From Promethearchaeota archaeon (GTDB lineage: Archaea > Asgardarchaeota > Hermodarchaeia > Hermodarchaeales > Hermodarchaeaceae): DNA of 23,055 nt. The DNA lies in the NCBI GenBank assembly GCA_048938295.1, contig JBHLMI010000034.1:1-23055 (forward strand). Reading direction: 5' to 3'. A program made the translations under genes and the position numbers. The stretch's first letter is position 1, and each line of letters begins with the position of its first letter. The notes beneath the pieces are model-generated. The model was not told where the DNA came from. It made no database searches and saw only the letters and a program-made list of their open reading frames with translations. This document shows, in pieces, positions 9,614-9,736 of this stretch.

Positions 9614-9736
9614 TCAAGTCTCAACTAGTTGTCCTCAAGGCAGAGTGGAAGAGCTTTTGAGGAGAAACGTCTATGAAAAGACAAATTTCGTTGACACCTC
9701 TCCTTTTACGGTGTTGGCGAGTTGGACTTGAAGGAG
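9614..9736 (+). ncRNA. Candidate structured cis-regulatory RNA in the leader of the giant gene (MITE-like element is the alternative)
   Basis: Found by eye: closing stem 9614-9625/9721-9731 (one bulge) and inner stems 9632-9638/9657-9663, 9669-9672/9679-9682 and 9688-9698/9710-9720. Loop CTCCTT (9700-9705) is complementary to the RBS AAGGAG (9731-9736). Confidence 0.45.

Follow-up and report, generated by a model that had tools for sequence, protein, structure and literature searches.

How is the giant gene at this locus controlled, and does the sequence in front of it work as an RNA switch? In the window, which is the whole 23,055-nt stretch of the Promethearchaeota archaeon contig analysed here, a gap of 184 nt (9562-9745) separates a gene for a 212-aa protein from one for a 1620-aa tail-anchored protein, both on the plus strand. 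The greater part of this gap, 123 nt long (9614-9736), was described in the initial annotation as a four-stem RNA element, the last loop of which could pair with either the Shine-Dalgarno (SD) sequence of the giant gene or a purine-rich segment within the second stem, and a translational riboswitch or thermosensor was proposed. The genome belongs to the class Hermodarchaeia and is available as an assembly of 2.5 Mb in 66 contigs with 46% GC. To our knowledge, very little work has been done on how Asgard archaea regulate their genes, and for Hermodarchaeia there are no mapped transcript starts.

Locus and orthologous leaders

The giant gene and the gene upstream of it are syntenic in 13 further genomes of the genus, where ~180-196 nt separate them. 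A pattern scan of metagenomes added three further leader variants, all preceding the giant gene, and returned two chance matches within unrelated coding DNA. The leader set comprised 16 sequences in total, including those from the three metagenome contigs; one of the 16 is cut by a contig end, and some of the tests were run on 15 or 12 sequences.

Read from 5' to 3', the leader alignment begins with a conserved hairpin that spans the upstream stop codon, after which come a run rich in T, a variable spacer and a nearly invariant block, AGTGGAAGAGCTTTTGAGG. Behind the block, conservation is moderate up to a second hairpin, the arms of which differ in sequence between leaders; the linker after it is conserved and leads to the SD and the ATG (Table 1). 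The distance from the block to the ATG is constant at 93-98 nt among the orthologous leaders, and the spacer 5' of the block varies.

Table 1. Features of the locus between the wHTH gene and the giant gene, in window coordinates.
Feature	Position	Strand	Remarks
wHTH gene, ArsR-type	8188-8907	+	upstream of the 212-aa gene; preceded by a micro-ORF
212-aa ORF	8923-9561	+	no Pfam match; stop codon 9559-9561
Hairpin A	9529-9593	+	long interrupted stem-loop across the stop codon 9559-9561; outside the element of the initial annotation; terminator-like
T-rich run	9597-9612	+	T5 at 9597-9601, +36 from the stop codon; directly after hairpin A in all orthologs
Variable spacer	9613-9641		hard to align, length varies; carries the 5' arms of stem 1 (9614-9625) and stem 2 (9632-9638)
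Nearly invariant block	9642-9662	+	BRE-like GAAGAGC (9648-9654) and TATA-like TTTTGAGG (9655-9662)
Moderately conserved stretch, TATA box to predicted start	9663-9682	+	includes stem 3 (9669-9672/9679-9682) and an ATG (9673-9675)
Predicted transcription start	about 9683-9686	+	inferred from the TATA centre (~9658) plus ~27 nt
Stem-loop 4	9688-9720	+	11-bp stem (9688-9698/9710-9720), 11-nt pyrimidine-rich loop
Linker, Shine-Dalgarno AAGGAG and giant-gene ATG	9721-9730, 9731-9736 and 9746-9748	+	SD and ATGGC conserved in orthologs
1620-aa giant gene ORF	9746-14608	+	tail-anchored / membrane-anchored product; message ~4.9 kb

Upstream end of the gap

The hairpin over the stop codon of the 212-aa gene, hairpin A, has a minimum free energy of -31.3 kcal/mol (z -4.31), and 0 of 200 shuffles were equally stable. 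Both of its helices are retained by RNAalifold with several compensatory pairs, such as columns 45/98 (GC in five sequences, CG in four) and 64/88 (CG in five, AU in three, UA in one). Its 5' arm is coding (…AGRAG…), with the coding changes balanced in the non-coding 3' arm, and hairpin A is better supported as an RNA structure than the element of the initial annotation. T5 runs are enriched four- to fivefold at +10 to +70 after stop codons across the genome, and hairpin A together with the T-run is, on these sequence features, the probable terminator of the upstream operon. A simple scan for bacterial-type terminators gave nothing at hairpin A, whose loop exceeds the rule of the scan.

The motif GGAAGAGC occurs three times within 130 nt, at 9529-9537 (plus strand), 9585-9593 (minus strand) and 9647-9654 (plus strand), that is, once in each arm of hairpin A and once in the promoter block, and CTCTTCC (9587-9593) could pair with either purine copy in a read-through RNA. 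Genome-wide this 8-mer is not notably enriched, with 95 occurrences against 63 expected. In the sibling genus (loci L015 and L018), a 437-nt gap, GC-rich and hairpin-rich, lies ~100-440 nt upstream of the giant-gene ATG; it contains GCGTAGGYCC, a sequence also present in the hairpin A loop. No Rfam match was obtained at the sibling-genus loci, and this gap may represent an undescribed structured RNA.

The four-stem fold and its loop

All of the pairings listed in the initial annotation were found at the coordinates given there, and the four-stem shape of 9614-9736 was reproduced by RNAfold with an energy of -42.2 kcal/mol and a z-score of -2.80, 3 of 200 dinucleotide shuffles being equally stable. 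The minus strand of the same segment is almost equally foldable (z -2.65), and folding with flanks (9562-9760) gave a z-score of only -1.9. What the window adopts is not kept in its relatives: the z-scores of the whole element range from -0.05 to -2.06 in 14 orthologous leaders, among which the window, at -2.98, is an outlier, and the mean over 15 leaders, the window included, is -1.1.

For stems 1 and 2, the best duplex between the spacer and the 3' partner was determined in each ortholog and compared with duplexes of dinucleotide-shuffled spacers. The resulting z-scores scatter about zero, from -2.9 to +1.5, with a p value of 0.11 for stem 1 of the window itself, and in most orthologs the spacer pairs with the 3' partners no better than its shuffles do. 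Counted over alignment columns, stem 1 is 54% paired versus 30-49% in slid controls, and stem 2 is 69% paired versus 46-63%; stem 4 reaches 87% by this count, versus 30-39% in its slid controls. Stem 3 was rejected as a conserved helix, being only 52% paired with shifts of register. The conservation and covariation of stems 1-3, for which the initial annotation had pointed to the leaders of homologous giant genes, are at background level, and only stem 4 exceeds chance.

The 16S rRNA 3' end of this organism reads GGATCACCTCCT, and SD-like 4-mers peak sharply at -15 to -10, where they are present in 42% of long ORFs versus a background of 13%; initiation in this organism is SD-led. SD sequences are described as rare in Lokiarchaea (2026 review, PMC12993045), and the use of SD sequences may differ among Asgard classes. 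The 16S match itself (G000:C48:36-1460, L037) spreads model positions 830-1343 over ~1130 nt of DNA, with the 3' end at ~1446, and the gene may carry an insertion or an intron.

Both complementarities proposed for the last loop are present in the window, since TCTCCTT (9699-9705) can pair with AAGGAG (9731-9736) and also, if one G-U pair is allowed, with GAGGAGA (9659-9665). Among relatives, the match to the SD is strong in about a third of the leaders, with a loop-SD duplex of -6.5 kcal/mol or lower in 5/16 and none in at least six; G009, G014, G002, G013, G007 and G011 have weak complementarity or lack it. The loop is pyrimidine-rich in most leaders, and the nested folds of the leaders contained no consistent partner of the SD. 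The second partner, GAGGAGA, most likely lies inside a TATA/BRE core promoter, 5' of the predicted transcription start. A possible pairing of the SD region with the coding region occurs in several orthologs and is absent from the window. In G005, G006, G002, G012 and G009 (for example at L010 and L012), the SD-proximal CCUAAAGG could pair with CCUUUAG in codons 8-10 of the giant gene, and the linker variation consists of transitions only.

That a four-stem plus-strand RNA toggles its loop between the SD and GAGGAGA as a translational riboswitch or thermosensor is therefore very improbable, and given the lack of conservation this reading is close to refuted. It can draw on the shape that the window adopts at z -2.8, on stem 4 as a real RNA, on the good complementarity of loop and SD that the window shares with some four further lineages, and on an apparently compensatory stem 2 in G007 (TTCTCAT/ATGAGGA, duplex z -2.9). 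These points are outweighed by stem 1 and 2 duplexes that do not surpass shuffles in most orthologs, by the averaged folding and the 52% pairing of stem 3, by the six leaders with weak or absent loop complementarity, by the absence of an Rfam family, and by a conserved core that has no supporting base pairs and resembles a promoter.

A conserved hairpin in the leader

Stem 4 is ~88% paired over 16 sequences versus 30-45% in slid controls, with compensatory changes on both sides in 6 of its 11 pairs. G-U pairs make up ~24% of its cells when summed over the per-pair table, and because these cells would be A-C mismatches on the other strand, stem 4 is a plus-strand RNA helix. The suggestion in the initial annotation that the G-U pairs favour an RNA structure over a DNA palindrome holds for this stem, which covaries and is about one quarter G-U.

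A covariance model built from the hairpin, the linker and the SD gave one strong match per genome, solely before the giant gene, in 13/14 genomes of the genus, and detected the hairpin neither elsewhere in those genomes nor in the sibling genus. A mobile element of the MITE type, which the initial annotation had named as the alternative, is excluded, the element being single-copy by BLAST, by a fuzzy pattern and by the covariance model. The element is locus-specific, restricted to the genus and single-copy. One relative carries an additional, incomplete copy of this hairpin at a contig end (G004:C52:4-55; E 5e-10), probably an assembly duplicate or a strain variant.

The 3' end of stem 4 lies 26 nt before the AUG, which leaves the SD outside the hairpin, and the predicted 5'UTR by itself is not unusually stable (z -0.04). 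No k-turn, sought by eye as a 3-nt bulge with tandem G-A pairs, was seen in stem 4. No Rfam family reached its gathering score in the window, and a search of 9400-9900 at E values up to 10 gave chance-level matches only (mir-965, a snoRNA and a lncRNA fragment), in agreement with the earlier remark that no known riboswitch core could be recognised. By analogy with bacterial 5' stabiliser stem-loops, the most likely role of stem 4 would be the protection or stabilisation of the 5' end of the 4.9-kb message, or that of a protein-binding handle.

The invariant block as a probable core promoter

The nearly invariant block takes in the 3' arm of stem 2 together with the greater part of the loop's second partner. 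A BRE/TATA matrix with the consensus AAAAGGCTTTTAAAG was obtained by a motif search in 488 upstream regions of this genome that are free of long ORFs; the same search on all long ORFs returned a flat, uninformative motif. TATA-like words peak 42-60 nt 5' of start codons genome-wide. The best match of the matrix is GAAGAGCTTTTGAGG in the block, at 7.9 bits, and the block is the top match in 14/15 orthologous upstream regions of ~270 nt each. A score of 7.9 bits is above the 99.9th percentile of random or far-upstream positions and at the 75th-90th percentile of the best promoter scores; matches of at least 7.9 bits occur about once per 2 kb per strand, genes included, so that the match alone has a p value of ~0.09 for the gap. 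The TATA-like TTTTGAGG is imperfect, two of its positions carrying G in place of the preferred A, and the block sequence is unique in the genome.

Because the matrix match alone is weak, the promoter reading rests more on its coincidence with an island of conservation. In the same orthologs, the promoters of the 3-hydroxyacyl-CoA dehydrogenase gene and of the wHTH operon were used as controls, and each of them shows a near-invariant island of ~19 nt centred on the matrix match, with variable DNA around it. The footprint of the block equals that of the control promoters, including ~11 nt upstream of the T-run. The matrix scan of the orthologous upstream regions found no conserved promoter-like site 5' of the block. 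In G011, the most divergent ortholog, the block and stem 4 are kept, and the ATG and stem 3 are lost. Related GAAGAG/GAATAG and T-rich boxes are located at -74/-76 in two of three genomes of the sibling genus (GAAGAGCTTTTTTAA, 8.0 bits; GAATAGCTTATTTGC, 5.9 bits). In the third genome, a weaker box led by GAAGAG is at -58 (4.0 bits); the hairpin is present in none of the three. On these sequence comparisons, the block is most likely the core promoter of the giant gene itself.

Archaeal TATA and BRE elements centre ~27 and ~33 nt before start sites (PMC5316973), from which we infer the start given in Table 1. With a start at this position, stems 1-3 and the second partner of the loop would be untranscribed, and stem 4 would lie 2-5 nt from the 5' end of a 5'UTR of ~62 nt. 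A transcription start downstream of the element, counted in the initial annotation among the findings that would speak against a switch, probably applies to most of it by this prediction. No conserved signal after the TATA box was found in genome-wide promoters. The conservation of 9663-9692 needs an additional explanation, because the promoters of this genome conserve nothing past the TATA box.

Two observations were made at the control genes. The listed ATG of the 3-hydroxyacyl-CoA dehydrogenase gene (14696 and orthologs) overlaps a conserved GGTGAT resembling its SD, and the true start is probably an in-frame GTG 12-18 nt downstream. The promoter region of the wHTH operon (7985-8090) is almost invariant over ~100 nt in 11 orthologs and consists of a BRE/TATA element, GAAAGGTTTATATTT (8.3 bits), with GAACGA / TCGTT sites arrayed behind it. 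A micro-ORF directly ahead of the wHTH gene (8093-8173) with its own GGAG SD, 26 aa long in the window, is present in 11/11 orthologs examined; its peptide has a conserved core CC-[VI]-[KR]-E-K and the end Y-[RS]-[RK]-x-[CG], and it is missing as such from the ORF list.

Alternative readings of the conserved block

The block and the stretch behind it can also be read as an initiation region, with GAGGAG (9659-9664) as the SD and AUG 9673 as the start of a regulatory uORF (M-K/N-R-R/Q-I-S-S...) in a long leader. Transcription would then either read through the T-run or begin at a weak promoter within the T-rich region, and translating ribosomes would open stem 4, thereby coupling translation of the giant gene to that of the uORF. 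An ATG follows GAGG by 8 nt in 15/16 leaders, with AAGGAG in place of GAGG in G009, an arrangement equally compatible with a transcribed uORF; this spacing equals the one used by the organism, the ATGA is more conserved than the adjoining bases, and the region resembles the initiation region of the giant gene (TTGA-GGAG-AAAC versus TTGAAGGAGTAAAGC). Many of the uORFs end within or just past stem 4, the promoters of this genome do not otherwise constrain the region past the TATA box, and read-through from the upstream operon would place the whole gap in RNA. The SD and the start codon are conserved, but the ORF length, the peptide and a coding pattern of substitution are not: lengths range from 3 to more than 26 codons, G012 has an early stop at codon 4 and G011 has no ATG, minor-allele counts of 12/17/22 give no clear third-position bias, and 7/7 second positions vary. 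The real micro-ORF of the same cluster, by comparison, keeps both its length (25-27 aa in 10/11 orthologs) and its peptide. A uORF would moreover leave the invariant AGTGGAAGAGC on the 5' side unexplained, has no conserved promoter-like site upstream of the block from which to be transcribed, and has no equivalent in the sibling genus. This reading, including its proposals for transcription and coupling, is considered unlikely.

More doubtful is the proposal that the block and the following stretch are mainly a specific transcription-factor site, for example for the wHTH protein encoded two genes upstream, with the basal promoter elsewhere or the giant gene expressed by regulated read-through; both parts of it are quite improbable. 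Such an operator would account for conservation that reaches ~30 nt past the need of a core promoter. It would also agree with the long conserved array of AACGA/TCGTT half-sites in the promoter of the neighbouring operon, with the GACGAA-T-TTCGTC palindrome that the leader consensus holds at the predicted start, and with the threefold occurrence of GGAAGAGC within 130 nt. Neither the AAACG site nor the palindrome's left half is conserved, however, with CG changed to CA in 7/16 leaders, and AAACGT is not enriched in the window. AACG-type operator half-sites common to the wHTH promoter and the giant-gene leader were rejected on the same grounds, the unconserved left sites and the lack of AAACGT enrichment, and they count only as a lead. 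The block is unique in the genome, which gives no signal of a regulon. An operator that overlaps the promoter would fit the best explanation and does not replace the promoter reading.

A probable composite element

The explanation preferred here, with a probability of about 0.6, is that the 123-nt element is a composite of three parts, a spacer that follows a terminator, the giant-gene promoter and a single conserved hairpin in the leader, and that stems 1-3 are chance pairings of the pyrimidine-rich spacer with purine-rich promoter or linker sequence. The gap would then be ordered as a terminator hairpin with its T-run, a non-conserved pyrimidine-rich spacer and a BRE/TATA promoter at 9648-9662, behind which the conserved stretch could be an operator. 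TBP and TFB would bind the block, and RNA polymerase would start ~27 nt downstream, near 9683-9686. The resulting 5'UTR of ~62 nt would open with the 11-bp G-U-rich hairpin, followed by a linker of 10 nt, the SD AAGGAG and the AUG. At the 5' end of the mRNA, the hairpin would most likely protect or stabilise the message, or serve as a handle for a protein, leaving the SD free. In the window genome and about four other lineages, a pseudoknot between the loop and the SD could damp translation, as a lineage-variable trait and not a conserved function.

A broader role for RNA would follow if the whole leader (9642-9736) were transcribed as a gene-specific unit of post-transcriptional control, in which either translation of the uORF unwinds the G-U-rich hairpin or a protein binds it, setting the translation of the giant tail-anchored protein. 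This is held as a tentative and rather unlikely possibility; if true, it would rank among the first cis-regulatory mRNA leaders reported from Hermodarchaeia.

Under the composite explanation, the finding is at present mostly ordinary, namely a terminator, a promoter and a leader hairpin, and it illustrates how an attractive riboswitch-like fold of one sequence dissolves under comparative analysis. One solid object is left, a covarying G-U-rich 5'UTR hairpin specific to the gene of a conserved 1620-aa membrane-anchored protein. If this hairpin stabilises or gates the message, it would provide a simple and testable case of control at the mRNA level in a close relative of eukaryotes. For one Hermodarchaeia genome, the analysis also yields a BRE/TATA motif that can be put to use and statistics on its SD sequences.

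Comparison with known systems

Like the TBP/TFB-dependent BRE/TATA core promoters of archaea, as mapped in Thermococcus onnurineus (PMC5316973), the block consists of a purine-rich element abutting a T/A-rich 8-mer, and it fits the motif of its own genome, the footprint of neighbouring promoters and a fixed distance to the downstream features. It differs in its imperfect TATA box, in the additional conservation of ~25 nt past this box and in a start that is predicted only. The predicted 5'UTR of ~62 nt is longer than the ~25 nt typical of this genome.

SD-sequestering riboswitches and RNA thermometers such as ROSE and fourU share with the window a pyrimidine-rich loop that matches the SD and a stem containing weak G-U pairs. 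In contrast to these systems, the SD here lies outside stem 4, the anti-SD is not conserved, a conserved multi-helix core and an Rfam match are both lacking, and the alternative partner is probably untranscribed.

Stem-loops that stabilise a message from its 5' end are known in bacterial mRNAs, in the ompA leader of E. coli and the ermC and aprE leaders of B. subtilis. Stem 4 is similar in being a conserved hairpin a few nucleotides from the predicted 5' end of a very long message, upstream of the SD and not overlapping it; it is different in its archaeal host with other RNases, its unusual richness in G-U pairs and a 5' end that is predicted.

In archaea, 5'-leader stem-loops bound by proteins are represented by L7Ae, which recognises a k-turn in its own leader (PMC5539422, PMC6298567). 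Stem 4 carries no visible k-turn signature, unlike the L7Ae leader, and resembles it in being a lone conserved 5'-leader stem-loop, confined to one gene, and a candidate protein handle for translational control.
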